Of a stretch of DNA of 24,062 nt, positions 936 to 19,557 are shown in pieces. The DNA lies in contig JAJYZL010000001.1 in assembly GCA_021799965.1 (NCBI GenBank), positions 1 through 24,062 of the forward strand, given 5' to 3'. Position 1 is the first letter of the stretch, and each line of letters begins with the position of its first letter. Source of the DNA: a bacterium (GTDB lineage: Bacteria; Patescibacteriota; Minisyncoccia; UBA6257; 02-FULL-45-10c). The notes beneath the pieces are model-generated. The model worked only from the letters and a program-made list of their open reading frames with translations, searched no databases and was not told the DNA's origin. The position numbers and the translations under genes were made by a program.

Positions 936-3536
936 ATGTCGATTTTACCAAACGTTACAAAAAAATCCTTTTGGGCGCTTCCGATTCATGAATGTCTGAA
1001 TATCCTGGAAACTAATCAAGATGGCTTGTCCGAAGAAGAGGCCGGAAAACGGCTGCGGATTTTTGGCCCCAATTTAATTGCAGAAAAATCCAGGACATCA
1101 AAGACGAGGATATTTCTTAATCAATTTAAAAATCCCCTCATTCTCCTGCTATTAGTTGCCGGAATTATAACTCTATTATTAAAAGATTATGCCAATGCCT
1201 TCTTTATTTATGCGGCGGCACTTATAAATTGCCTGTTGGGTTTTTACCAAGAGAATAAAGCGGAAACAACTCTTAATAATCTTAAAACTTACATAGAAAA
1301 AAGAGCCAGGGTTCTCAGAGAAGATCACGAATATGAAATCAACGCCGAAGAATTAACTCCCGGCGATCTTATTCATATTTCTCAAGGAGAAAGAATACCT
1401 TGCGATGCCAGGCTTATTTATACCAATAACTTTTTAGTTGACGAATCTACTCTTACCGGGGAATCGTTGCCGATACAAAAAAATACCGAACCAGTTAGTT
1501 TCCGGGCCGTATTAGGAGATCAAAAATGCATGGTATTTGGCGGCACCTTAGTGATGCAGGGATTTGCTAACGCCATCGTGGTTTCAATAGGTGAAGAAAC
1601 AGAAATAGGAAAAATCGCATCAATGGTTGGCTCTCAGGAGACAAAAACTCCGCTTCAAGAAAAGATAATGGCCTTCAGTAAAAAAGCCGCCATAATTTTA
1701 AGCATAGCCGCAACCCTGGTCTTTTTTATTGGCATATATTCAGGAAAATCTATCCTAGAAATGTTTTTAATTTCGGTTGCCATATTGGTAGCGGCAATTC
1801 CTGAAGGACTGCCTGTAGCTATGACGGTCGTACTGGCAATCGGAGTGCAAAGGCTGGTCAGTAAAAAGGGCGTTGTAAGAAAATTATTAGCCGCAGAAGC
1901 CTTAGGAAACACAACGATAATTTTAACGGATAAAACGGGTACACTGACAGAATCTAAAATGAGTCTGTCTAAAATAGAAAGTTTTGAAAAAGATTTTGAC
2001 GAAGAACAAATCTTTAAATTCGCTTTAATAAATACCGATGTGGTTGTAGAAAATCCGGAAGAATCAATAGATAAGTGGCGGATAATCGGCAGACCACTGG
2101 AAACAGCCGTGGTCAAAGCCGCCGCAGAAAATGGAATGCTGCTAAGCAAAGCAAAAAAAGATATCAAGGTCTCTGAGTTTCTTCCATTTAATTCTTCAAA
2201 TAAATTTTCCGCCTCCATCATAGAGCATCACGGAGAAGAGCTAATCACCTTTTTCGGCGCGCCGGATATTCTTCTTAAAATATCCAATAAGACTACCGAC
2301 GAGATCAGAGAAATTAGCCGCGAAATAAATAAAATGGCCAGTTCTGGCGAAAGAGTTTTGGGCATAGCCGTAAAAAAAATTAATTCAAAAACAAAATTTA
2401 ATTTATTTACGGAAAAATTCTCCGCCCTAACCTTTATAGGAACAATATCTTTTAAAGATCCAATAAGAAAAGGCGTTAAAGAAACTATTCATAACATAGA
2501 ACAGGTCGGCATAAGAACTGTAATTGTTACGGGAGACCATCAGGGCACCGCGGAAGCAACCGCAAAAGAATTAGGATTTTCCATTACTAAGGAAAATATA
2601 ATAAACGGCGCAGAGCTGGATACGATGAGCGACTCAGAATTAAAAAAGAGACTTGCAACATTAAAAGTGGTTTCGCGTGTAAGTCCCGAAGGAAAATTGA
2701 AGGTGGTAAGGGCTTTTCAAGAAATTGGTGAAATAGTGGCCATGACGGGCGACGGAATAAATGACGCGCCCAGCCTAAAGCAAGCAAATATTGGAATTGC
2801 AATGGGAAGCGGAAGCGATGTAGCTAAAGATACGGCTCAGCTTGTGCTATTGGATGATAATTACGAAACCATAGTCGCCGCTATAGAAGAGGGCCGCAGA
2901 ATAATAGAAAATATTAAAAAAACTATTGTCTATTCCCTGCTAAATTTATCCGACGAACTTATCTTGATCGGCGGATCCATAATTTTTGGACTAGTTATGC
3001 CAATAAATGCATTTCAGATATTGTGGGTAAACTTCTTCGCCGACAGCTTTCCGGCTATCGCATTCGCCTTTGAAAATCACTTCAAATATATTTTGCAAAA
3101 ACCCCAAAATCCTTCAGAGAAATTAATAAATAACAAAACAAGCTCCCTGATTCTTTTAATAGGATTCATAAACAGCTCATTATTAATATTTATTTATTAC
3201 CTACTTTTAAAAGCCGGATTTAATCCTCAAACGGTAAGGACTTTTATTTTCGCTTCATTCGGAACATACTCGCTTTTTTCAGTTTTTTCGGTCAGAAATA
3301 TGCGACAAAGCATATTTAGATATAATCCCTTTTCCAATATTTACATAGTGGCCGGATCCGTCATCGGCTTCCTCCTTATGACCATCGCTATCTATACACC
3401 CCTAGGACAAGAACTATTAAAAACATCGGAGCTTCCAGGAATATGGCTTTGGGGAGTTCTGGGAATAGGTATAATTAATACATCGCTTCTAGAAATAGGA
3501 AAATATATAAATAATAGGAATAATTTAGAAAATTAA
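936..3536 (+). CDS. Cation-transporting P-type ATPase (P2A/Ca2+-like)
   Basis: TGES, IPEGLP, DKTGTLT phosphorylation site, DPIR, MTGDGINDAPSL and multiple C-terminal TM helices. Confidence 0.95.
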   Translation: MSILPNVTKKSFWALPIHECLNILETNQDGLSEEEAGKRLRIFGPNLIAEKSRTSKTRIFLNQFKNPLILLLLVAGIITLLLKDYANAFFIYAAALINCLLGFYQENKAETTLNNLKTYIEKRARVLREDHEYEINAEELTPGDLIHISQGERIPCDARLIYTNNFLVDESTLTGESLPIQKNTEPVSFRAVLGDQKCMVFGGTLVMQGFANAIVVSIGEETEIGKIASMVGSQETKTPLQEKIMAFSKKAAIILSIAATLVFFIGIYSGKSILEMFLISVAILVAAIPEGLPVAMTVVLAIGVQRLVSKKGVVRKLLAAEALGNTTIILTDKTGTLTESKMSLSKIESFEKDFDEEQIFKFALINTDVVVENPEESIDKWRIIGRPLETAVVKAAAENGMLLSKAKKDIKVSEFLPFNSSNKFSASIIEHHGEELITFFGAPDILLKISNKTTDEIREISREINKMASSGERVLGIAVKKINSKTKFNLFTEKFSALTFIGTISFKDPIRKGVKETIHNIEQVGIRTVIVTGDHQGTAEATAKELGFSITKENIINGAELDTMSDSELKKRLATLKVVSRVSPEGKLKVVRAFQEIGEIVAMTGDGINDAPSLKQANIGIAMGSGSDVAKDTAQLVLLDDNYETIVAAIEEGRRIIENIKKTIVYSLLNLSDELILIGGSIIFGLVMPINAFQILWVNFFADSFPAIAFAFENHFKYILQKPQNPSEKLINNKTSSLILLIGFINSSLLIFIYYLLLKAGFNPQTVRTFIFASFGTYSLFSVFSVRNMRQSIFRYNPFSNIYIVAGSVIGFLLMTIAIYTPLGQELLKTSELPGIWLWGVLGIGIINTSLLEIGKYINNRNNLEN

Positions 3537-4947: not shown

Positions 4948-6350
4948 ATGATAAAAACAGCTCTAAAATTCATTAAAAATAATTACCCAATAGTATATTT
5001 GGCGATGTTTTTGGCTTTAATGAGCTATATTCCTTTCGTAGCTCAGGCTTCTGTAACGGGTATTTGGCCTACCCTCCTCTTTATAACAGCGTTACATATA
5101 ATAGCGCTATATTGCGTGGAAGCGTGGTAGAAAATTCCGACCCAAATACTTGCGTATGGTTTGAATATAGTTCTAGTAATTTTTATCAGCAAGGTCCAAT
5201 TACCACCACTCAAGAAAAATGCGGAATTATAAGTTATACATCTTTTGACCTTGATCAATTTATTAACGGACTTACGCCCGGAACAACTTACAATTTCCGA
5301 GTAGTAGCCCAGGATTCCATCGGCCTTCATTATTCGGCCAGCCAAACATTTACGACTCTTTCCACCGCACAACAAAACACGACCAATAGCCAAACTTCAT
5401 ATGATCCGACCAGTGGCGCAGTTACGACCTATGCCCAACCTACAGCAGCCACCAATGCAGCGATGCTGGTACATGAAAATTCTTCGGTAATTAATGGCAC
5501 AATTAACCCCAGAAATAATTCCACATCTGCTTGGTTTGAATGGAGCGCTGATCCTAATTTATCCGTTATAAATAAAAGCGTTCCCGAAACTATTGGTTCC
5601 GATAACACAGATAAGTATCTTGCATATGCATTATCAAATCTTACACTTGGGCAGACTTATTACTTCCGAGTAGTAGCTAAAAATTCTTATGGTACAACTT
5701 ACGGAGCTATAAAAAGCTTTACCACGCAGGCGGCTCCAATCGTAGCCGCATCTTCAAATTCGACAAACTCATCCGCTACATCTAATTCCCTACCTACCGA
5801 TAAGACAATCAATTCTCAAGCAAGCGCATCAAACAGCATCTTTTCTTTGGAAGCAGAATTCAATAATAATAATCCAAGACCAGGAAAGGAAGTTATTTAT
5901 AACGTAAGCTATGAAAATACCGGTAATTCAGACGCTGCTAACGTTATACTCAAAATCACTATTCCTAATGAAGCGGCGTACGAAAGTTCAAGTTTTGCCA
6001 CTACAAATAAAGACGGAAACACGGTTTCTTTTAAGGTAGGAAATGTTCCCGCAAAAAGCTCCGGAATAATCAGTATCAAGGTCAAAATAATGGATCTAAC
6101 CAAAACCAATAGCTTGACGTTCAGCGATTCATTGTCCTACTTAGAAAATGGAAAAACGGCAAACACGAACCTAACCAGTGAGTTAAAATTAAATCTTAAT
6201 TCACTCACTGCCTCCGTGATTGATCTATTCGGAAACACATTAAATAATGCATTAGTTGATCTGCTGCTTGGCATAATAATAGGATTCGGAATATATCATT
6301 TCGTTATCAGAAAAAAGGAAGTAACTAACACAGAAGATCCGTTGAAATAA
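4948..6350 (+). pseudogene. Surface protein gene (signal peptide, 2 FnIII-like repeats, S/T/N linker, DUF11-like Ig domain, C-terminal TM anchor) split by an apparent -1 frameshift
   Basis: ORF 4948-5130 encodes a signal peptide ending in AQA|S. ORF 5064-6350, in another frame, encodes the mature domains (WFEY...YNFRVVA; WFEW...YYFRVVA; GKEVIYNVSYENTG) and the anchor LLLGIIIGFGIYHFVIRKK. One added base gives a 467-aa protein. Could also be an assembly error. Confidence 0.7.
5295..5677 (+). repeat. Internal duplication of the FnIII-like domain
   Basis: TTCCGAGTAGTAGC is identical at 5295-5308 and 5664-5677; TGGTTTGAAT occurs at 5157-5166 and 5532-5541 with a similar offset. Confidence 0.8.
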
Positions 6351-6353
6351 TTT

Positions 6354-6390
6354 AATAAAATCCGCCCCATAGACTGGGGCGGATTTTATT
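6354..6390. terminator. Bidirectional intrinsic terminator
   Basis: Perfect 16-bp stem AATAAAATCCGCCCCA-tagac-TGGGGCGGATTTTATT between convergent genes. Confidence 0.92.
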
Positions 6391-6405: not shown

Positions 6406-8829
6406 CTAAATAACTATATTTATAAGTTTATCCGGTACAAATATCGTCTTTTTGGGCTTACCAGTGAGAAACTCCTTAATCTTTTCCTTAGACATTGCTA
6501 TTTTTTCTATTTCTTGTTGAGAAGAACCCTTGGGCATCAAAATTTTATCACGCAATTTTCCGTTTATTTGAATCAAAATTTCAACCTCCTCGTCTTCAAT
6601 CAAATGCTTACTGTATTCCGGCCATGCTTCAATATGCACTGATTTTTTATTGCCCAAATTCTGCCAAAGCTCTTCAGCTATATGCGGGGCAAAAGGAACC
6701 ATTATTTTGATGTAGTTCTCAGCCATATTTTTATTGACGGCATCCTTTTTCTTTTCCATTTCATTCAAAAGTATCATAAGCGATGATACTGCGGTATTAA
6801 ATTTAAATCCGGCGACATCCTCTCCTACTTTTTTAATAGTTTTATGGAGCAATCTATTCAAATCCTTATGATCTTTGCCGCTTCCATTGTCAGGCTTAAC
6901 CTTCTTATCAAATTTTATTTTGGCAAATAAATCATTAACTCTATTTAAGAACCTATAGGCTCCCAAAATACCAGTCGGATCCCATGGTCCTCCCTGGCTA
7001 TATTCCGCCATAAAGCAAAGATAAATTCTCATTGAATCAGCGCCAAACTTTTCCACCAACTCATCAGGATCAATTACATTGCCGCGAGATTTAGACATTT
7101 TTTGACCGTCTGGGCCAAGTATCATGCCCTGGTGACGCAAGGATACAAACGGCTCTTTAAAATCCAAATAACCTTCATCGTGCAGAAACTTCGTAAAAAA
7201 TCTTGCGTAAAGAAGGTGCATTACGGCATGCTCCGGCCCCCCAACATACATTTTTACAGGCATCCAATTTTTTATCTTTAACGATTCAGCAAAAGATTTT
7301 TTATTTTTAGGATCTAAGTAGCGCAGGTAATACCATGAGGAGTCAATGAAAGTATCCATAGTGTCCGTTTCTCTTTCAGCTGGTCCGCCACATTCAGGAC
7401 ACCTTACTTTCAAAAATTTCTCAGATTTAGCAAGTGGAGATCTGCCAAGTCCATCAGGAAGATAATCTTTGATTTTTGGAAGTTTTACCGGCAAATCTTT
7501 TTCCGGAACAGGAACGGTACCGCATTCCTTGCAATAAATAACCGGGATTGGCGTACCCCAATAACGCTGGCGGCTTATCAACCAGTCGCGGAATTTATAA
7601 TTAATCTTTTTCTTGGCTCCAATTGATTCAATGATTCTATCCTTGGCTATATTATTAGGCAGATTATCTAATTCTCCGGAATTAACCATGACTCCGTCAT
7701 TTACGAAGGCAGCCTCAAGCTTATTCTGCTTTCCGTTTTCAGAAACTACTTGAATGATAGGCAATTCAAATTTTTTAGCAAAATCAAAATCTCTTTCGTC
7801 GTGGGCTGGAACGGCCATAACCGCGCCCGTTCCGTATCCTCCCAAAACATAGTCAGAAACCCAAACAGAAATTATCTTTTTATTAAACGGATTTATTACT
7901 TTAATTCCTTGCAACTCTACACCGGACTTCTCTTTGACATCGGTTAATCTGTCTAACTCTGTTTTATGCTTAGATTTCTCCAAATAATCTCTCACGCTGT
8001 TTTTATTCCTTATTCTTGCATCCAAAATTTTTATAAGCGGATGCTCAGGAGCTAATACTAAATAAGTGACGCCCGGAAGCGTATCAGCTCTGGTAGTAAA
8101 AACTTTTATTTTTAATTCTGATTCTTCAATTGGGAAATCTATTTCCGCTCCTTCAGAACGGCCTATCCAATTTTTCTGCATAGACTTAGTTCTTTCCGGC
8201 CAGTCTAATGTATCCAAATCCTCTAAAAGCCTATCGGCATAGTCAGTAATCTTTAAAAGCCACTGCGTAACTTCTTTTTGTTCTACAGAAGTTCCACAGC
8301 GCTCACATTTACCGCCCTCGGCCTGTTCATTGGCCAGTACCGTTTTACAAGATGGGCACCAATTTGCCGCCACTTTTTTACGGTAAGCCAAGCCCTTTTT
8401 GTACATCTGTAAAAATATCCATTGATTCCACTTGTAATAATCCGGCAAACAAGTGACAACCATTCTTGACCAATCGTAGATATTGCCCATTGCCTGAAGC
8501 TGCCTTGTCATATTTTTTATATTAGACAAAGTCCACGTTTCAGGAGAAACGCCGCGCTTAATAGCCGCATTTTCTGCAGGAAGACCAAAAGCATCAAAAC
8601 CAATAGGACTCAAAACATTGTATCCCTCCATTCTTTTAAAACGTGCAAAAACATCGGCTGGCGCATAGTTATACCAATGGCCGATATGCGCATTCCCGGA
8701 AGGATATGGGAACATTACCAAGTGATAATAATTCTTTTTTCCTTTTACGTTATCTTTGGCAGTAAAAAATTTTTTTTGTTTCCAATATTTTTGCCACTTA
8801 GCTTCTATTTTTTTATGATTGTAAGCCAT
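6406..8829 (-). CDS. leuS: Leucine--tRNA ligase
   Basis: MFPYPSG-HIGH, Zn knuckle CPSC/CERC, CP1 editing motif GTGAVMAVPAHDERD, DWLISRQRYWG, KMSKS. Confidence 0.98.
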   Translation of the reverse strand: MAYNHKKIEAKWQKYWKQKKFFTAKDNVKGKKNYYHLVMFPYPSGNAHIGHWYNYAPADVFARFKRMEGYNVLSPIGFDAFGLPAENAAIKRGVSPETWTLSNIKNMTRQLQAMGNIYDWSRMVVTCLPDYYKWNQWIFLQMYKKGLAYRKKVAANWCPSCKTVLANEQAEGGKCERCGTSVEQKEVTQWLLKITDYADRLLEDLDTLDWPERTKSMQKNWIGRSEGAEIDFPIEESELKIKVFTTRADTLPGVTYLVLAPEHPLIKILDARIRNKNSVRDYLEKSKHKTELDRLTDVKEKSGVELQGIKVINPFNKKIISVWVSDYVLGGYGTGAVMAVPAHDERDFDFAKKFELPIIQVVSENGKQNKLEAAFVNDGVMVNSGELDNLPNNIAKDRIIESIGAKKKINYKFRDWLISRQRYWGTPIPVIYCKECGTVPVPEKDLPVKLPKIKDYLPDGLGRSPLAKSEKFLKVRCPECGGPAERETDTMDTFIDSSWYYLRYLDPKNKKSFAESLKIKNWMPVKMYVGGPEHAVMHLLYARFFTKFLHDEGYLDFKEPFVSLRHQGMILGPDGQKMSKSRGNVIDPDELVEKFGADSMRIYLCFMAEYSQGGPWDPTGILGAYRFLNRVNDLFAKIKFDKKVKPDNGSGKDHKDLNRLLHKTIKKVGEDVAGFKFNTAVSSLMILLNEMEKKKDAVNKNMAENYIKIMVPFAPHIAEELWQNLGNKKSVHIEAWPEYSKHLIEDEEVEILIQINGKLRDKILMPKGSSQQEIEKIAMSKEKIKEFLTGKPKKTIFVPDKLINIVI

Positions 8830-8894
8830 AATTTAAATTTAAAATTGAAAAACAAGATATAAAAATTTAATTAGGAAACGACTAATTACCTAGT

Positions 8895-8923
8895 ATTTTA
8901 TCCCTAAAGGCGCTTAGGGGCAA
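8895..8923 (-). promoter_or_regulatory. Sigma70 promoter for leuS
   Basis: TTGCCC (8923-8918), 17-nt spacer, TAAAAT (8900-8895). Confidence 0.55.
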
Positions 8924-8966
8924 GGGATAAGAAAAACTACTGATAATAAATAAAATTGGCTATCGC

Positions 8967-9794
8967 CTACTTTAGGCCGAACACACGGATTGAATTTTTA
9001 TAAATATCTTCCGTAGCTATCGCCAAATCAATCCCTTTTAATTCGGCTAATTTATTAACAACCTCAACAACATAAGCTGGCTCATTTCTTTTTCCGCGGC
9101 GGCTTTGTGGGGCTACGTAGGGACAGTCTGTTTCAGAAAAAATCCTATCTAAGGGTAAATATTTTATAATTTCATCGTAGCTCCTGGCAAAAGTTATAAC
9201 GCCTCCAAAAGTAAAATAAAATCCCAATTTTGCTAATTTTTTGGCCATATCCAAAGAGCCGGCATAAAAATGCATTATTTTGGGTAAGGCATCAAAACTT
9301 TTATCTCGTAATATTTCCAAGGCATATTCATAAGCATCGTCCGTTCCCTTGCTTGGCCTGCAATGCATCATCAATGGTTTATTCAAATCTCTTGCTAATT
9401 CAGCCTGCTCAACAAAAGCATTCCTTTGAAGCCCTGCGTCGTTACCCTCAGAAAACAGATCAAAACCGCACTCGCTTATAGAAACAACTTTTGGATCCCT
9501 GGCTAATTCCTTTAAAATTTTTATATCAAAAATCTCAGGTTCTGATGCATACTGCTCTTTTTCATCATGATGCCATTTTTTCGAAAGATGATTGGGATGA
9601 AAACCAACGGTCGCCCAAATATCATCCGGAAATTGATGAGCGATTTCTATAGCTTTTTTTGAAGTGGCGGCTTGCGTGCCAACAGCTATCATTTTTACTC
9701 CGGCATCTTTCGCGCGCTTAATAACCACTTCTCTATCAGTATCAAAATCCGGAAATTGTATGTGTCCGTGCACATCTATTGCTTTCATATTCAT
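8967..9794 (-). CDS. tatD: TatD family deoxyribonuclease
   Basis: DVHGH, GFHP, SECGFD, MHCR, MHFY, SETDCPY metal-binding motifs. The ATG directly follows the metG TAA. Confidence 0.93.
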   Translation of the reverse strand: MNMKAIDVHGHIQFPDFDTDREVVIKRAKDAGVKMIAVGTQAATSKKAIEIAHQFPDDIWATVGFHPNHLSKKWHHDEKEQYASEPEIFDIKILKELARDPKVVSISECGFDLFSEGNDAGLQRNAFVEQAELARDLNKPLMMHCRPSKGTDDAYEYALEILRDKSFDALPKIMHFYAGSLDMAKKLAKLGFYFTFGGVITFARSYDEIIKYLPLDRIFSETDCPYVAPQSRRGKRNEPAYVVEVVNKLAELKGIDLAIATEDIYKNSIRVFGLK

Positions 9795-11246
9795 TTATTG
9801 TAAGCGAGGAAAAAGATTATCTATTTTTTTAGCAATAAACTCGCCTTCTTTTATTTCAATGGCTTCAGATATTTTCTTTGCCGTCTCCGGTAAAAACGGA
9901 ACAAGCAGCTCGCTGATGGTTTTTAACATAAAAACCAAGTCATATATTACCTCCTTTCTCTTGGCTTCCGGCAAATCTTTGCTCCACGGCTTAGTTAAAT
10001 TTAAATACCCATCGCCGTAATGAATCAAATTCCAAATCTCATTTAAAGCTACATCAAACTTAAAATTTTCTGTATTTTTATTTGTTAAATTAATAAAATT
10101 TTCTATATCTTTTTTGGATTTTCCGGATAACCCGCCCTCTTTTGACGCCAACGTTAAAACTCTGGCCGCAAAATTACCCAAACCGTTTGCCAGATCGCCA
10201 TTATATCTTTCCTCAAACTTTTCATAAGAAAAGTCTCCGTCTCCCGAAGAAGAAATTTCCCTGAGAAGATAATACCTTACGGGATCAATGCCGTATTTTT
10301 TTATCAATTCGTACGGATCAATAATATTGCCCAAAGATTTAGACATTTTTTCTCCTCCGGAGGTGATAAAGCCGTGAATAAAAATATTTTTAGGCAAAGA
10401 AAGCTTAGCAGAAATGAGCATCGCCGGCCATAGAGCGGCGTGAAAACGCGATATATCTTTTCCAATCATATGTACATCTGACGGATGTTCCTCCCACTTT
10501 TCAATTCCGCCATATCCACTGATATAATTTGTCAGGGCATCGGCCCAAACATACATTACCTGACTATCGTCATCAGGAACCGGAATTCCCCACTTCAAAT
10601 GTTTTTTGGAACGGGAAAAACTTACGTCTTCAAATCCCTCTCTCGCCAAGGCTAAAATTTCGTTTTTACGCGTCTCCGGAACAATCTTTAATTTATCTTT
10701 TTTGATCAATGATTCAACCTCCTTGGTATATTTTGAAAGCCTAAAAAACCAATTCTCCTCTTCAATAAATTCCAAATCTTTTTTATGGGTAATGCATTTA
10801 CCATCAACAATATCTCTCCCTGTTTTAAAAGCTTCGCATCCGACACAATAATAGCCACTATATTTTTTCTTATACAAGTCTCCTGAAGCCAAAATCCTTA
10901 GCCACACGGCTTGAGCCACCGGCCAATGATTTTTTTTATCGGTTGTACGGATAAAATTATTCCAAGACAAATCTAAAAGAGGCTTTAGTCCTTTGAATTT
11001 TTCGCTTAGTCCGTCAACAAATTCTTGTGGACTTTTTTTAGAAACCTCTGCGGCTCGCTGTATCTTTGAACCGTGCTCATCAGTGCCCGTCTGAAAGAAA
11101 ACATCCCGGCCTCGCTGACGATAATATCTTGCCAAAACATCGGCCTGAATCAATTCTAAAGCATAGCCAATATGCGGCTCGGAATTAACATAAGCGATGG
11201 AGGTTGTAATATAAAATTTTTTATCTTTCTTCCAAAAGTTAAGCAT
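9795..11246 (-). CDS. metG: Methionine--tRNA ligase (short form, no C-terminal tRNA-binding domain)
   Basis: YITTSIAYVN-PHIGY, TGTDEHGSKI, CVGC/CITH knuckle, YVWADAL, GKDI, KMSKS. Confidence 0.97.
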   Translation of the reverse strand: MLNFWKKDKKFYITTSIAYVNSEPHIGYALELIQADVLARYYRQRGRDVFFQTGTDEHGSKIQRAAEVSKKSPQEFVDGLSEKFKGLKPLLDLSWNNFIRTTDKKNHWPVAQAVWLRILASGDLYKKKYSGYYCVGCEAFKTGRDIVDGKCITHKKDLEFIEEENWFFRLSKYTKEVESLIKKDKLKIVPETRKNEILALAREGFEDVSFSRSKKHLKWGIPVPDDDSQVMYVWADALTNYISGYGGIEKWEEHPSDVHMIGKDISRFHAALWPAMLISAKLSLPKNIFIHGFITSGGEKMSKSLGNIIDPYELIKKYGIDPVRYYLLREISSSGDGDFSYEKFEERYNGDLANGLGNFAARVLTLASKEGGLSGKSKKDIENFINLTNKNTENFKFDVALNEIWNLIHYGDGYLNLTKPWSKDLPEAKRKEVIYDLVFMLKTISELLVPFLPETAKKISEAIEIKEGEFIAKKIDNLFPRLQ

Positions 11247-11248
11247 TG

Positions 11249-12289
11249 TTAAACATTCTCAATCTGCATCTGACGCTTCATTTTTGCCTCAGACCAATGA
11301 TTAATGACCTCTTGCACTAACACAGCTCCCGGCACTGCTAAAATCAAGCCAACCAGGCCAGCCAGCTGAGCGCCTGCCAATATTGCTATCAATATTACGG
11401 CCGGATTTAAGCTGGTCGTAAGACGCATAAACGTCGGAGTTAAAAGATATCCCTCTACCTTTGAAATTACTACAAAAAAGATAAGAACATAAATAGCTAT
11501 CGTCTGTGATTGAGAAAGAGCCACTAAAACCGCTATCGCGCCGCTTATTATCGGCCCCACATAATGAACCAATTCCAAAACCGCGGCTAATATCGCTAAA
11601 ACCAACGCATACTCCACGCCAATAAGCCATAAACCGATATATACAATGAAACCAATACTCAAGCTTAAAAATATTTGACCTTCCAACCACTTGCCAATCT
11701 TATGCCTTGTTCTGAAATACACACTTAAAATTTGTTCTTCGTAGCTGGGCGGCAAGATAGCTCGCAAAAGCTTCTCTACCCCATCCCTATCTACTGATAA
11801 ATAGAAAGATAATACAAATGCGGAAATAGCCAAAGCAATTCCACCCAAAAACTTTGAAAGAGTATCAAAAAGAGAGGCGCTGCCGCTGAACAAAACACTC
11901 GCTAATCTGCCGATGCTTTCAGTAAACGCGTTGGCGATATCAGCTATCCTTTGCAAGCCCAAAACCGGAGTATTGGTTTTTGATAACACATCAATGAACA
12001 CATTGAGCTCGGTAAGCGCCACGGGTACTATGATATAAAGCAGAACTGCCACCAAAACTATCAAAAATATAAATATAAGCAAAGTGCTTAAAACTCTGGG
12101 AATGCGTTTTTTCTCAGCCCATGATATAACCGGATCCAAAGCAGAAGAAATTACGATAGAAATAAGCACCGCCGAAGCAATTTCTTTGGCCAGAAAAAGA
12201 AAATAAATAAAAGCAGCCACAAAAACAGCCCGCCACATAGATGACCAGCTGATCTCTAATTGAATTTTTCCTTTTTTCTCTAAGTCCAT
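11249..12289 (-). CDS. AI-2E family transporter (PerM-like permease)
   Basis: About 8 hydrophobic segments and family motifs (KIGKWLEGQIFL, YVGPII, VEGYLLTP, GLILAVP). ATG at 12289 preferred over the TTG at 12331. Confidence 0.88.
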   Translation of the reverse strand: MDLEKKGKIQLEISWSSMWRAVFVAAFIYFLFLAKEIASAVLISIVISSALDPVISWAEKKRIPRVLSTLLIFIFLIVLVAVLLYIIVPVALTELNVFIDVLSKTNTPVLGLQRIADIANAFTESIGRLASVLFSGSASLFDTLSKFLGGIALAISAFVLSFYLSVDRDGVEKLLRAILPPSYEEQILSVYFRTRHKIGKWLEGQIFLSLSIGFIVYIGLWLIGVEYALVLAILAAVLELVHYVGPIISGAIAVLVALSQSQTIAIYVLIFFVVISKVEGYLLTPTFMRLTTSLNPAVILIAILAGAQLAGLVGLILAVPGAVLVQEVINHWSEAKMKRQMQIENV

Positions 12290-12350
12290 GCTTATTAAAA
12301 CGATTTGAATGCCAAAATAGTTTCCCGGCAACAGTCAAATCCTTATCAGA

Positions 12351-13619
12351 TTAGCTCAGTTTGAGAAGTTCTTCAAATTCAGAGCCATTTTCAAATGGAC
12401 CAATTATAGCCAGATTCAGTTTATCGTTCGTAAAAATTTCCCTAGCTATCGCCCGCACATCAGAAGCTTTCACGGCTTTTATTTTTTTAACAATCTGCTC
12501 CGGAGTCAAAATCTTTTGCTTGAATAATTCCTGCTCTCCATAAAATTCAGCGACCGAATCAGATGTTTCCAGACCAATCATCATTCGGCCGGTAATGTGA
12601 TTTTTTGTTTTCTGCAATTCTTCCTTAGATATCGGCTCGGCTTTAATTTTATTTATCTCCCCTAAAATGGCTTTAATTACTTCTTTAACCCTTCTATTGT
12701 CCACCCCCGCGGACACAGAAACAAAACCATGATCGGTAAGAAGCGAACTGCCGCAATTTATATAATAAGCTGCTCCCATCTCTCCTCTTATTTTTTGGAA
12801 AAGTCTAGAACTCATTCCTCCGCCCAAAATATCGCAAAGCACATCCAGGGCGTACCTTCTTTTATCAAACATATCAAAAGCCCGAAATCCTAAAATTAAA
12901 TGAGTTTGATCAAGTTGCTTTGATTGCAAGACAGCGGCGGGACGACTCTGAGATTCCAAAACTTTTTTCTTGCCCATTCCCTTGCCCCTTTGAACTTCGG
13001 CAAAAGTTTTATTAAGTTTTTTCAGCATCTCTTTTTCCTTAAAAGCGCCGGACACTACCACGGTCGTGGCACTTGGAACATAATGCCTGGCTCTGTAATT
13101 AACTATGTCTTCTTTTTTTATTGCCCTTACCGTCTCCCTAGGTCCAGCAATGTCCCAGCCGGCCGGCTGATCTCCATACAAAAGCTTCATAAATATCTCG
13201 CCGACTTTTTTTTGCGGCAGGTCTTCGTACATATTTATCTCTTCCACGATAACGCCCTTTTCTTTTTCTATTTCTTTTTCATCAAAAAGCGGATTCAAAT
13301 ACATATCGGATATGATATCCAAAGCGCTGTCTATTTTATCAACGCCAACTTTAGCGTAGTATCCGGTATATTCGTGTCCAGTAAAAGCATTATACGCCGC
13401 TCCCAACGATTCTAATTCGGAAGAAATCGCCAAAGCAGTAGGCCTGTTTTTAGTTCCTTTGAAACACATATGCTCCAAAAAATGCGAAACACCATTTATT
13501 TCCTTAGTTTCGTATTTTGAGCCAGCCTCAACAAGAACTAAAAATGTAGTAGCCAAACTTTTTGGCATTGGACACAAAATAATTCTTAATCCGTTTTTAA
13601 GAACGTGTTTTTTGAACAT
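12351..13619 (-). CDS. M16 family (pitrilysin/insulinase-like) zinc peptidase
   Basis: Inverted zinc motif HFLEH, NAFT, EKGVIVEE, LGGGMSSRLFQKIR. Confidence 0.95.
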   Translation of the reverse strand: MFKKHVLKNGLRIILCPMPKSLATTFLVLVEAGSKYETKEINGVSHFLEHMCFKGTKNRPTALAISSELESLGAAYNAFTGHEYTGYYAKVGVDKIDSALDIISDMYLNPLFDEKEIEKEKGVIVEEINMYEDLPQKKVGEIFMKLLYGDQPAGWDIAGPRETVRAIKKEDIVNYRARHYVPSATTVVVSGAFKEKEMLKKLNKTFAEVQRGKGMGKKKVLESQSRPAAVLQSKQLDQTHLILGFRAFDMFDKRRYALDVLCDILGGGMSSRLFQKIRGEMGAAYYINCGSSLLTDHGFVSVSAGVDNRRVKEVIKAILGEINKIKAEPISKEELQKTKNHITGRMMIGLETSDSVAEFYGEQELFKQKILTPEQIVKKIKAVKASDVRAIAREIFTNDKLNLAIIGPFENGSEFEELLKLS

Positions 13620-13623
13620 TAAA

Positions 13624-14937
13624 TTAGCTGTTTAATTTTCCGTTTAAATAATTTTTAAGCTCGGAAATTTTTATACGTTCCTGTTTCATAGTATCTCTGT
13701 CTCGCACCGTCACAGCGTTATCTTCCAGAGAATCAAAGTCCACGGTCACGCAAAATGGCGTACCGATTTCATCTTGGGAATAATACCTCTTGCCAACATT
13801 TCCCCTGTCATCCCATACAGTCATAAGATCTTTGCGCAGATCACTATAAATTTCTTTGGCCTTAGAAACTAACTCCGGTTTATTTTTTAAAAGAGGAAAA
13901 ACAGCTACCTTGTAAGGAGCAAGTTTATATGGCAATTTCAAAACTAACCTTTCCGGATTGGAATCATCATATGCCGCACATAAAACAGCCAAAACTGTTC
14001 TATCAACTCCCCAAGTCGGCTCAATAACATGCGGAATTATTTTTTCATTTGTTTCCGGATCAACATAACTCAGATCTTCACCGCTCGCCTTCGCATGGTT
14101 TTTCAAATCAAAATCAGTGCGATACGCCAAGCCATAAAGCTCTTTAGTACCAAACGGAAATTCGTATTCGAAATCAATGGTTCTCTTGGAATAATGAGCA
14201 AGCTTTTCTTTTTCCACATCAAGCTCGTGAACTTTTTCCGTTTCAATACCAACTTCTTTCATCCATTCCATCATTTCCTTCCTCCACATTTCAAAAACTT
14301 CTTGCCAACCCTCGTCTTTTTTGGGCGGTTTAATAAAATACTCTATTTCCATTTGTTCAAATTCTCTGGTCCTGAAAATAAAGTTACCGGGAGTTATCTC
14401 ATTTCTAAAAGCTTTTCCTATCTGAGCGATTCCAAATGGCAATTTCTTACGAGTTGTCTGTAAAACATTTTTAAAATCAACAAACATCGCTTGAGCCGTT
14501 TCCGGTCTAAAATAAACCACGTTTGCCGCTTCTTCAGCCGGACCAAGAAAAGTTTTTAGCATCAGATTAAACATATGAGCTTCAGTAAAACTTTCTTTAG
14601 CTCCGCAATTAGGACAAGGCTTGGAATTATCAATCTGATCTTCGCGAAAACGGGAATGGCATTTTTTGCATTCCACCAAAGGATCATTAAACGTAGCCAG
14701 GTGACCGGACGCCTCCCATACTTTCGGATTCATAATCAAAGACGCATCTATTCCCACGATATCATCGCGAGACTGCACAAAACGCTTCCACCAAAGTTGC
14801 TTGATATTATTTTTCAATTCAACGCCAACCGGACCGTAATCCCAGGAATTGGCCAAGCCACCGTAAATTTCACTGCCGGGAAATATAAATCCCCTTCTTT
14901 TGCACAGTGAAATTATTTTGTCCATTTTTGATTCCAT
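13624..14937 (-). CDS. glyQS: Glycine--tRNA ligase (alpha2 homodimer type)
   Basis: KRRGFIFPGSEIYGG, RPETAQ, GIAQIGKAFRNEITP, FRTREFEQMEIEYF, VIEP, anticodon-binding domain. Start at ATG 14937 (or 14925). Confidence 0.97.
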   Translation of the reverse strand: MESKMDKIISLCKRRGFIFPGSEIYGGLANSWDYGPVGVELKNNIKQLWWKRFVQSRDDIVGIDASLIMNPKVWEASGHLATFNDPLVECKKCHSRFREDQIDNSKPCPNCGAKESFTEAHMFNLMLKTFLGPAEEAANVVYFRPETAQAMFVDFKNVLQTTRKKLPFGIAQIGKAFRNEITPGNFIFRTREFEQMEIEYFIKPPKKDEGWQEVFEMWRKEMMEWMKEVGIETEKVHELDVEKEKLAHYSKRTIDFEYEFPFGTKELYGLAYRTDFDLKNHAKASGEDLSYVDPETNEKIIPHVIEPTWGVDRTVLAVLCAAYDDSNPERLVLKLPYKLAPYKVAVFPLLKNKPELVSKAKEIYSDLRKDLMTVWDDRGNVGKRYYSQDEIGTPFCVTVDFDSLEDNAVTVRDRDTMKQERIKISELKNYLNGKLNS

Positions 14938-15000
14938 ATGTAAAAAGAATAGCAAAAAACAATCCAAAAAACAAAAATAAAATATCAGAAATCAGTCCCT

Positions 15001-18366: not shown

Positions 18367-18999
18367 TTATAATAACATCTGCCTGCCGCCCAATTTTTGC
18401 GATATCAGTTCCACGACCCGATCTAATTTCTTCGGATCTTCAATATAATTTAAATTATCAACTGAAATATTTAAAATGGCAGCCTTTTTAAAACTCTTTG
18501 CCCAATCTTCATATAAACGATTCAGATCTAAAAGATATTTTTCATCTATTTTTTGTTCAAATTCTCTGCCACGCTTCTTAATTCTTTTTTTGACTGTCGG
18601 CAAAGAAGCTTTCAAATAAATTATCAAGTCAGGAGCCGGCAATAGATTTAAAATAGTCTCATAAAAACTCTGGTAGACATCCCAGTCGCGCTTTTGAATA
18701 AATCCCCTTTCAAAAAGATTTTTGGCAAAGATTTCTGCATCTTCATAAATAGTCCTATCCTGAATAATAATACCCTTCTCTTTGGAGAGAAGGTAATGAT
18801 CTTTAAGACGCTGGCTAAGAAAGAACATTTGAGAATGAAAGGCCCAGCGTTTCATATCTTTATAAAAATCGGCAAGATAGGGATTTTCAGAAACTGGTTC
18901 ATAAACCGGTTTAGCGTGGAATTTTTCGGCCAAAATTTTTGTAAGAGTAGATTTTCCGGCACTTATGTTTCCGGCGATAGCTATAAAAAGATTGTCCAT
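18367..18999 (-). CDS. Deoxynucleoside kinase (dCK/dGK family)
   Basis: P-loop GNISAGKS, WAFHSQMFFL, IQDRTIYED, LIIYLKAS, RGREFE. Real start is ATG 18999; the track's extension to 19140 runs through the tRNA. Confidence 0.93.
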   Translation of the reverse strand: MDNLFIAIAGNISAGKSTLTKILAEKFHAKPVYEPVSENPYLADFYKDMKRWAFHSQMFFLSQRLKDHYLLSKEKGIIIQDRTIYEDAEIFAKNLFERGFIQKRDWDVYQSFYETILNLLPAPDLIIYLKASLPTVKKRIKKRGREFEQKIDEKYLLDLNRLYEDWAKSFKKAAILNISVDNLNYIEDPKKLDRVVELISQKLGGRQMLL

Positions 19000-19003
19000 A
19001 TTG

Positions 19004-19087
19004 TGCACGGGACAGGATTTGAACCTGCATGACCTTACGGTCGCTACCACCTCAAGGTAGTGCGTCTGCCAGTTTCGCCACCCGTGC
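19004..19087 (-). tRNA. tRNA-Leu(GAG)
   Basis: Acceptor GCACGGG/CCCGTGC, discriminator A, anticodon arm CTACC-TTGAGGT-GGTAG (GAG at 19053-19051), variable arm GACC-GTAA-GGTC, T-arm GCAGG-TTCAAAT-CCTGT. CCA is not encoded. Confidence 0.97.
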
Positions 19088-19101
19088 ATATTTAACACCC
19101 A

Positions 19102-19138
19102 GTCTGCCATCCGCCAACTGGCGGATCGCCACCCGTGC
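19102..19138 (-). repeat. Duplicated tRNA-Leu 5' fragment with palindromic insert
   Basis: GCACGGGTGGCGA-[TCCGCCAGTTGGCGGA]-TGGCAGAC versus the tRNA's GCACGGGTGGCGA-[AAC]-TGGCAGAC; 14-nt spacer to the real tRNA. Confidence 0.95.
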
Positions 19139-19154
19139 AATTTTACTAATAACC

Positions 19155-19182
19155 ATTATAACCAAAAAAATATATTTGTGAA
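19155..19182 (-). promoter_or_regulatory. Promoter for the tRNA-Leu/kinase transcript
   Basis: TTCACA (19182-19177), 16-nt spacer, TATAAT (19160-19155), upstream of the duplicated fragment. Confidence 0.6.
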
Positions 19183-19189
19183 ATATAAG

Positions 19190-19221
19190 AAAACAGAATC
19201 CCGGCGATATGCCGGGATTTT
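19190..19221 (-). terminator. Intrinsic terminator of rplS
   Basis: AATCCCGGC-5nt-GCCGGGATT followed by CTGTTTT on the minus strand. Confidence 0.8.
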
Positions 19222-19227
19222 AAATTT

Positions 19228-19557
19228 TTATTCAGCCGAACCGACTTTTTGTCTGGTTTGCTTTCTAGAAAGATCGCGGATGTAATAGATTTTTGACCTA
19301 GAAACTTTTTTAGGAGAACTTAGTATTTCCAACTTTTGAATCTTTGTAGAGTGCAGGGGAAAAACTCTTTCTACGCCCACTCCCGCCAAAGAAGTTCTTA
19401 CAGTAAAAGACGATCCGATTTCAGAACCATGCTTTCTGGCAATAACCATGCCGGAAAAATGAGCGATGCGCTCCTTATCGCCTTCTTTAACTTTTTCATA
19501 AACCTTAACATTCGCGCCCGGCCTTATTTTATTGAAAATTTCTTTATTTATTGGCAT
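19228..19557 (-). CDS. rplS: 50S ribosomal protein L19
   Basis: IRPGANVKV..KVKEGDKERI..FSGMVIARK, FTVR, GVGVERVFPLHS, KVSRSKIYYIR. ATG at 19557. Confidence 0.96.
   Translation of the reverse strand: MPINKEIFNKIRPGANVKVYEKVKEGDKERIAHFSGMVIARKHGSEIGSSFTVRTSLAGVGVERVFPLHSTKIQKLEILSSPKKVSRSKIYYIRDLSRKQTRQKVGSAE

Follow-up and report, generated by a model that had tools for sequence, protein, structure and literature searches.

Why should the tRNA-Leu(GAG) gene of a reduced bacterium stand directly behind a broken copy of its own 5' end, with a palindrome set into the copied D-loop? The question is raised by a window of 24,062 nt, the complete contig C30 of G000, a fragmented metagenome-assembled genome of 784,589 nt in 150 contigs (38% G+C; 76% complete). 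This is a bacterial genome of the very small, Patescibacteria-like kind; the proteins of the window include bL19, a bacterial leucyl-tRNA synthetase (LeuRS) with an editing domain, and DUF4012. Few sequences in a genome are as conserved, or tolerate as little change, as tRNA genes, which in these reduced bacteria are mostly single-copy. We found that the 51 nt preceding the intact gene comprised a stub of the tRNA, interrupted by a 16-nt palindrome (PAL), and a spacer, that this arrangement was derived, and that both PAL and broken tRNA copies recurred elsewhere in this genome and its relatives. We hold with about even confidence that the 51 nt are an evolutionary scar, a partial duplication combined with a mini-palindrome, and not a dedicated device.

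The features of the locus are listed in Table 1. The 5' end of the intact tRNA, which does not encode CCA, reads GCACGGGTGGCGA-AAC-TGGCAGAC; the stub begins 16 nt past the -10 box and contains the same two blocks with PAL between them. A repeat search returned exact direct repeats of 13 nt (19075-19087 and 19126-19138) and 8 nt (19064-19071 and 19102-19109), together with inverted repeat arms at 19106-19116 and 19119-19129, and local alignment of the tRNA with its own upstream flank gave a z-score of 6.1 over shuffles. The first-pass annotation of this DNA had described the leader as a copy of the tRNA-Leu 5' end carrying a palindrome in the D-loop, and the palindrome as two 8-bp arms around a 2-nt centre; the repeat search confirmed both descriptions. 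Its two pairing claims were also borne out: the palindrome arm (19116-19125) was complementary to the tRNA D-loop (19065-19074) at 9 of 10 positions, and the 3' acceptor strand, with which the copied GCACGGG was said to pair, was 8/8 complementary to each of the two GCACGGG copies. Folding of the leader, which the annotation had also suggested, gave a hairpin of -23.9 kcal/mol (z = -3.9), more stable than all 200 shuffles, none of which equalled it. The proposed link between this palindrome and a hairpin at 6354-6390 failed; the two have only a 7-nt core in common, and the latter has an 11-bp stem with a T-run between convergent genes and does not belong to the PAL family. That GC-rich hairpin, at 6360-6384 with its T-runs, lies between the convergent open reading frame (ORF) at 5064-6350 and the LeuRS gene (6406-8829) and is likely a two-way terminator. 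Rfam searches returned two tRNAs only at the gathering score over the whole window and, down to E 10 over 19400-18800, chance-level weak matches besides the tRNA; a terminator scan from the promoter to the tRNA found none, and neither an antiterminator nor an attenuator was found there.

Table 1. Positions of the features of the tRNA-Leu(GAG) locus and of the nested tRNA loci in G000
Feature	Contig	Position	Strand	Evidence or remark
bL19 gene	C30	19626-19228	-	profile search
Terminator-like hairpin 3' of the bL19 gene	C30	19219-19197	-	terminator scan; upstream limit of the tRNA transcription unit
Sigma-70-like promoter, TTCACA-16-TATAAT	C30	19182-19155	-	11/12 matches; predicted driver of leader, tRNA and kinase
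Stub part 1, GCACGGGTGGCGA	C30	19138-19126	-	exact copy of tRNA positions 1-13
PAL, 16-nt palindrome, TCCGCCAGTTGGCGGA on the minus strand	C30	19125-19110		replaces D-loop triplet AAC
Stub part 2, TGGCAGAC	C30	19109-19102	-	exact tRNA copy: remaining D-loop and start of the D-stem 3' strand
14-nt spacer, tgggtgttaaatat	C30	19101-19088	-	immediate 5' leader of the working tRNA
Intact tRNA-Leu(GAG)	C30	19087-19003	-	ARAGORN and Rfam, 50.1 bits (gathering score 29)
Deoxynucleoside kinase gene	C30	18999-18367	-	PF01712, E = 1.9e-57
Nested Arg(TCG) in an outer tRNA-Arg	C83	~190-420
Nested Pro(CGG)	C83	~3012-3200
Nested Arg(CCT)	C34	~1664-1881

Is the structure real? The annotation had named misassembly as a danger and a sister genome as a check. 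In the sister species G005 we found these 51 nt again, altered only at 19099 in the spacer, and the promoter was kept at 27 of 28 nt; the L19 and kinase genes of the two species are 84% identical, and 36-40% of third codon positions differ. Their tRNA-Leu(GAG) genes differ only by a compensatory pair in the variable arm (GACC...GGTC versus GCCC...GGGC). Additionally, independent public contigs spanned 19055-19300, which covers the tRNA 5' end, spacer, stub and promoter, with 0 differences in run X1 and 1 in run X2, the latter being the G005-type base at 19099. An artefact in which strain variants of the tRNA 5' end were joined in tandem might be suspected in a metagenome-assembled genome that is broken into 150 contigs, and the public contigs end within the conserved part of the tRNA; nevertheless, independent contigs of two runs continue unbroken from the true 5' end through the spacer into the stub and so include both copies, and G005 holds the same structure despite flanks that have diverged by ~14%. 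An assembly artefact is thus practically dismissed. In run X3, a joint of 19087 to 19224 was seen at low likeness, probably from another organism, and was not used as evidence; the matches of small-share runs, and those of RNA run X18, were limited to the conserved tRNA core and came from other organisms, so that X18 yielded no reads on the leader.

The arrangement is also derived. In G004, which belongs to the same genus, the same promoter is present, the tRNA begins 16 nt past TATAAT, and 12 of 16 leader bases are common to the two genomes. Because the G004 tRNA begins where the G000 stub begins, the stub is the ancestral 5' end and the 51 nt are the derived part. When tRNA-Leu(GAG) loci of 20 genomes were compared, the stub was present at 2 of 20, those of G000 and G005. 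The exact stub-plus-PAL pattern was found among 185,579 species genomes in the G005 contig only, and a metagenome contig collection gave 0 matches to it.

We defined PAL as TCCGCC-N4-GGCGGA, with a specific class that has an RRYY centre (TCCGCC-RRYY-GGCGGA); the consensus, TCCGCCAGCTGGCGGA, is a perfect 16-bp palindrome. G000 contains 5 copies, compared with 0.005 per strand expected from base composition. Among 61 related genomes, TCCGCC-N4-GGCGGA occurred at 320 sites in 44, with a maximum of 46 per genome, while a reversed control pattern gave 0-2 per genome; some of these sites are simply terminators that have a T-run and a different loop. The annotation had proposed counting ATCCGCC...GGCGGAT across the genome, and with a spacing of N0-15 this yielded 4 in G000; as a definition of the family, that core is either too strict or too loose, and TCCGCC-N4-GGCGGA is the informative pattern. 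Comparison of the 13 PAL sites of G005 with G000 revealed that 3 were common to both, 6 had no counterpart at the aligned position in G000 and the remaining 4 had no assignable position. The six G005-only copies lay in coding regions (3), in the loop of a terminator hairpin (1), in an intergenic region (1) and in a tRNA-Pro stub (1). The three coding copies were in frame and added 12, 12 and 15 nt; both 12-nt additions, of four codons each, were in one arginyl-tRNA-synthetase-like gene (G005 C55, ~9491 and ~10828), whose G000 ortholog on contig C113 contained neither. In PAL-free alleles, the insertion point often showed GCGGA or GGAGA, resembling a half-site, and one PAL was nested in another at the tRNA-Pro(CGG) stub of G005. 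PAL, a GC-rich sequence dispersed over genomes of this order, where it occupies hairpin loops, untranslated regions and, in frame, genes, is an insertional repeat family with presence/absence polymorphism: it stands at many unrelated sites far above chance and is polymorphic at orthologous sites, including in-frame ones. An Rfam search of 13 PAL-bearing loci of relatives returned nearby tRNAs only. PAL was also seen 6-22 nt before a start codon (G000 C73:2030; G005 C47:4107, C39:3146 and C17:7430), where the arm GGCGGA with an A-rich spacer may mimic or mask a ribosome-binding site.

Within tRNA stubs, PAL always replaced a three-base R-A-Y of a loop. The lost triplet was AAC of the Leu D-loop in the window and in G005, AAT of the Pro(TGG) T-loop in G000, and, in G005, AAC of the Pro(GGG) T-loop and AAT of the Pro(CGG) T-loop. 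In G037, from another family, a stub upstream of tRNA-Thr(CGT) had PAL at the D-loop position. The pattern GGTTC-PAL-TCC was found in 38 public metagenome contigs, several of which look like mutual duplicates; this count alone says little, since the pattern itself demands T-loop-like flanks. A tRNA lay within 350 nt in 19 of the 38 contigs and, in 18 of these, just upstream on the same strand. In 7 of the 38, both PAL flanks were exact copies of the T-arm and 3' acceptor strand of the upstream tRNA (Thr, Cys, Ala, Glu and three Pro), with a left copy of 6-31 nt and the loss of three bases (GAC, AAT, GAC, GAT, AAT, AAT and GAT).

Broken self-copies were not confined to the window tRNA. They were sought by local alignment and blastn-short, as a survey of 11-mer words was too noisy, and high scores at C2 (Leu/Cys) and C114 (Thr/Thr) were excluded because they came from neighbouring tRNA genes. 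In G000, 5 of 34 tRNAs had broken self-copies nearby: Leu(GAG), Arg(CCT), Arg(TCG), Pro(CGG) and Pro(TGG). A further blastn-short match of 19 nt was seen at C113 (E = 0.045). At Pro(TGG), a 3' stub lay 26 nt downstream, with PAL in place of the T-loop triplet given above. Two or three of the five cases were nested, a tRNA within a tRNA. At Pro(CGG) and Arg(CCT), the order was 5' half, arm, leader, complete tRNA, trailer, complementary arm and 3' half. Relative to the inner gene, the outer acceptor halves of these two nests had compensatory changes, and they paired with each other; D- and T-loops were intact in the outer halves, and the flanking helix arms contained G-U pairs on the sense strand. 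At the third locus, the anticodon loop of the outer Arg(TCG) copy held an 'empty' 29-nt hairpin (352-385), its T-loop was split, and a 24-nt perfect palindrome, TCCCTGCCTGCCGGCAGGCAGGGA, followed just downstream of the inner gene. When leader-trailer complementarity was compared over all 34 G000 tRNAs, strong helices were present at the nested loci only; shuffle z-scores are uninformative for GC-rich flanks.

The nested-tRNA helix arms proved to belong to a second family, PAL2 (CCCC-N-CACC ... GGTG-N-GGGG), which was present in 15 of 61 genomes, G003 (28 copies) and G036 (11) among them. Its stem has a conserved T/C (or G/A) mismatch, and T-R-A-A often follows the right arm. PAL2 junctions recurred across tRNAs: the left arm was preceded by NNCG (mostly CACG), the right one was followed by TGAA or TAAA, and these stood in place of TTCG or TCCG of the T- or anticodon loop. 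Similar structures were seen in relatives. In G004, an almost complete genome of which 689,674 nt were examined, 2 of 45 tRNAs had self-fragments, namely Arg(GCG), whose nest had PAL2 arms, and Asp(GTC), which was accompanied by a 3' stub of 18 nt; RRYY-type PAL was absent from G004, and its tRNAs were uninterrupted at the four loci compared. G001, G003 and G005 contained more nested or one-sided forms, and in some of the broken copies a different hairpin was inserted into the D-loop or the variable loop. One-sided stubs could be derived from nested forms by recombination between direct repeats.

How, then, did the 51 nt arise? In the scar reading that we favour, an event in the common ancestor of G000 and G005, either a partial duplication or a replacement, would have rebuilt a complete tRNA 51 nt downstream with a new 14-nt leader; the 13-nt and 8-nt blocks are then what is left of the original 5' end, now displaced. 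As the probable route of duplication we favour an illegitimate join made during recombinational repair or the uptake of a homologous copy. PAL would then have been inserted into the dead stub, and PAL hits would appear only in stubs because functional tRNAs cannot tolerate them. PAL-free stubs in the same genome argue for this order, in which duplication preceded the palindrome. The stub should be part of the transcript, where RNase P would face two identical 5' strands, which we view as a tolerated side effect. Several points weigh against this account. The 67-nt leader is far better conserved relative to G005 than its neutral neighbours, which fits either function or a recent block exchange. 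The stub lacks most of the D-stem 3' strand, and a PAL that targets loops should have met a whole D-arm, that is, the palindrome should have come first. The repeated association of PAL, stub and intact tRNA may reflect a coupled mechanism rather than two independent events, and no enzyme was identified for the insertion. The reverse order had been proposed by the annotation, as a palindromic element that hit the tRNA and a duplication that rescued it; the insertional repeat family and the displaced 5' end make that proposal largely right, but its sequence of events does not sit well with the PAL-free stubs. PAL would here have inactivated the D-loop of the live tRNA-Leu(GAG), and an intact copy, from a sister chromosome or by uptake, would have rebuilt the gene from position 1, with an illegitimate join after position 24 that left the damaged 5' end upstream. 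PAL does lie exactly in D- or T-arm loops in every stub that holds it, and the window stub can no longer form the D-hairpin, so that a loop-directed hit suits an intact gene better. G000 also has tRNA-Leu(UAG), on contig C32, which would have made the loss of tRNA-Leu(GAG) survivable; partner tRNAs with U34 can cover such isoacceptors, and many of those affected have a possible U34 partner (CGG, CCT, GAG, GGG, CGC, CGT, CCC and CGA). A like pattern, partial duplication with short DNA between the copies, is described for rRNA operons in the available part of PMC3457768. Nevertheless, PAL-free stubs and nested halves exist in G000 and G004, so duplication needs no PAL; PAL was not seen in an uninterrupted tRNA among the loci examined, and after PAL had been removed in silico from 30 loci, ARAGORN called no tRNA across any of the sites. 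We consider it unlikely that the palindrome came first.

The other explanations differ in where they place the origin or the purpose of the leader. The palindrome might have been made on site from the tRNA's own D-arm by a template switch or fold-back during replication or repair, as the annotation also suggested. The 9/10 complementarity of the palindrome arm to the D-loop AACTGGCAGA would fit such an event, as would the resemblance of TGGCGA in the tRNA to the arm TGGCGGA and the half-sites at PAL-free alleles. However, the same 16-mer, varying only in its central four bases, stands at unrelated loci in G000 and at the 320 sites in relatives, and PAL is also found in T-loops and coding regions that have no such local template, which makes a local template switch very unlikely. 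It is doubtful, but more credible, that the leader has a function, either, much as the annotation proposed, as an acceptor-strand competitor that would tune RNase P and thus the 5' end or yield of the kinase mRNA, or as a decoy against palindrome insertion. From the -10 box to the tRNA start, G000 and G005 differ at 2 of 67 nt, compared with 24% in the upstream intergenic region and 37% at third codon positions (binomial P = 1.8e-6; 0.0125 without 37 nt whose sequence could be kept by gene conversion or by self-correction of the hairpin). In a nearest-neighbour model, which ignores tertiary contacts, the stub-acceptor fold was as stable as the native cloverleaf (-61.8 versus -61.0 kcal/mol), with a mean pair probability of 0.75 versus 0.24, so RNase P would meet two candidate sites. 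The kinase start codon 3 nt downstream would tie the mRNA end to tRNA processing, and PAL-bearing stubs beside intact tRNAs recur widely. Against a function, the leader is common to one sister species only, with G004 and 17 other relatives lacking it; the conservation is a single pairwise comparison and may stem from tRNA gene conversion, hairpin self-correction or a recent exchange of the promoter-tRNA block; the energy model takes no account of tRNA tertiary contacts; and the leader matched no Rfam family and showed neither a terminator nor an antiterminator. Finally, we raise, as a speculative and rather improbable idea, that PAL and PAL2 are inserted by an activity that reads tRNA-gene loops and is coupled to, or survivable only with, rebuilding of the tRNA inside or beside the broken copy. 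On this idea, PAL would replace R-A-Y of D- or T-loops and PAL2 arms would replace TTCG or TCCG of T- or anticodon loops. If it were true, these protein-free units of <200 nt would be the smallest tRNA-restoring insertions known; they would parallel integrative elements, which bring a tRNA end with them, except that either side of the gene could be involved, and the window stub would be half of such a unit, possibly a decoy shielding the working gene.

To place these structures, we compared them with known systems. The T-stem and anticodon stem are classic crossover regions. The scars of integrative elements (att) resemble the window locus in the direct repeat of part of a tRNA beside an intact gene, and 3' stubs elsewhere in the genus begin near the T-stem or anticodon stem. 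The differences are that the copies at att scars are kilobases apart, while here they are 14 nt apart, and that the stub loop is here replaced by a palindrome. An att scar was rejected for the window, where the copied positions are 1-13 and 17-24, in the 5' part of the tRNA, at that 14-nt distance and with no integrase in the window. A scan of the 10 larger window ORFs found no integrase; the sole PF00589 match of G000, a tyrosine recombinase, is on contig C138, and nothing links it to PAL. The available part of PMC9897764 treats partial tRNA fragments as products of integrating elements of 9-23 kb or of CRISPR spacer uptake. The remark of the annotation that a 5' duplication is unusual stands when set against integrative-element scars, but at the tRNA genes studied here 5' and 3' stubs both occur.

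Short palindromic repeats offer closer parallels. Rickettsia palindromic elements are about ten times longer than PAL. Like them, PAL is a small palindromic repeat of coding regions, non-coding regions and RNA genes, standing in frame in genes and in RNA-gene-derived sequence; unlike them, it is 16 nt, a near-perfect palindrome, present in 0-46 copies per genome, and in a different phylum. In R. felis, 728 copies of the Rickettsia elements, 85 in ORFs and 3 in RNA genes, are given in the portion of PMC1166351 that is available. GC-rich palindromes are reportedly found flanking Neurospora mitochondrial tRNA genes, judging by the title of a study by Yin and colleagues from 1981. Fungal mitochondrial GC-rich palindromic clusters, as the accessible text of PMC4478555 describes them, multiply in small AT-rich genomes, are polymorphic and can merge. 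They are thus like PAL in being GC-rich hairpin mini-elements with presence/absence polymorphism; they are unlike it in being organellar and longer (GC42 is 42 nt) and in having a two-base target duplication, and that text reports no replacement of tRNA-loop triplets and no broken tRNA copies (PMC4478555). The rRNA-operon duplications, proposed in the part of PMC3457768 at hand to stem either from an insertion that duplicated a long target or from a tandem duplication and subsequent recombination, are similar in their internal duplication with short inserted DNA between the duplicates; they concern rRNA rather than tRNA, and no palindromic element is described there.

PAL resembles REP/REPIN elements with their RAYT (Y1) in being a short extragenic palindrome in tens of copies, and Y1 genes with their own palindromes are present in relatives (G003); unlike REP, PAL also stands within genes. 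We found no match to a Y1 gene (PF01797) in G000, of which 76% is present. The Y1 genes of G005 and G003 were flanked by palindromes other than PAL, and Y1 does not seem to be the mobiliser of PAL: its presence did not follow PAL load over the 61 genomes, with a mean PAL count of 5.7 in the 21 genomes with Y1 and 5.0 in the 40 without (Mann-Whitney P = 0.29). In G003, at C20 ~1500-2600 and on C96, Y1 (RAYT-like) genes were flanked on both sides by palindromes of their own, e.g. TAGGAAGTCGGACTTCCTAA. This arrangement indicates that the genus has at least one classical REP-type system, distinct from PAL. The nested loci of G000 resemble the archaeal tRNA halves joined by complementary flanks (PMC4390854 and PMC4033280, as far as their available text goes). 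An archaeal-type split or intron-containing tRNA was rejected: the host is bacterial, with bL19 and a bacterial-type LeuRS, and the window holds no 3' exon that matches the 5' stub. Additionally, some outer halves, such as Arg(CCT) in G000, do not have the parts needed for a working tRNA, unlike archaeal split tRNAs, and no bulge-helix-bulge could be drawn by eye at the nested junctions.

The broken self-copies, the recurring replacement of loop triplets and the nesting point to an unrecognised process at the tRNA genes of Patescibacteria-type genomes, which would be either a loop-directed mini-element or a characteristic outcome of repair. This recurring, patterned process is apparently undescribed; we found no account of PAL or of nested tRNA copies in these bacteria in the literature searched, with subscription journals and supplements largely outside the search. 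The stubs can mislead tRNA annotation. According to the folding model, they would create long leaders with two competing RNase P sites, and they may affect genes whose mRNA ends are made by tRNA processing, as that of the kinase would be. If the coupling of PAL to tRNA rebuilding were true, these loci would be a natural system in which an essential RNA gene survives invasion.

The transcription unit itself is compact. The ATG of the deoxynucleoside kinase gene lies 3 nt past the tRNA end, and the gap contains neither a promoter nor a ribosome-binding site. Because of this spacing and because the gene has no ribosome-binding site of its own, the kinase mRNA should owe its end to tRNA processing; judging from this layout, the mRNA is probably freed by processing of the tRNA 3' end and then translated nearly leaderless. 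The distance from the tRNA 3' end to the kinase ATG is 0-3 nt, again with no ribosome-binding site, in three species: the window (18997-19003), G004 and G005. Elsewhere in the window, the minus strand at 6406-14967 carries a cluster of translation genes that encode LeuRS, methionyl-tRNA synthetase (MetRS), a class II synthetase with an HGTP anticodon domain and an M16 peptidase.

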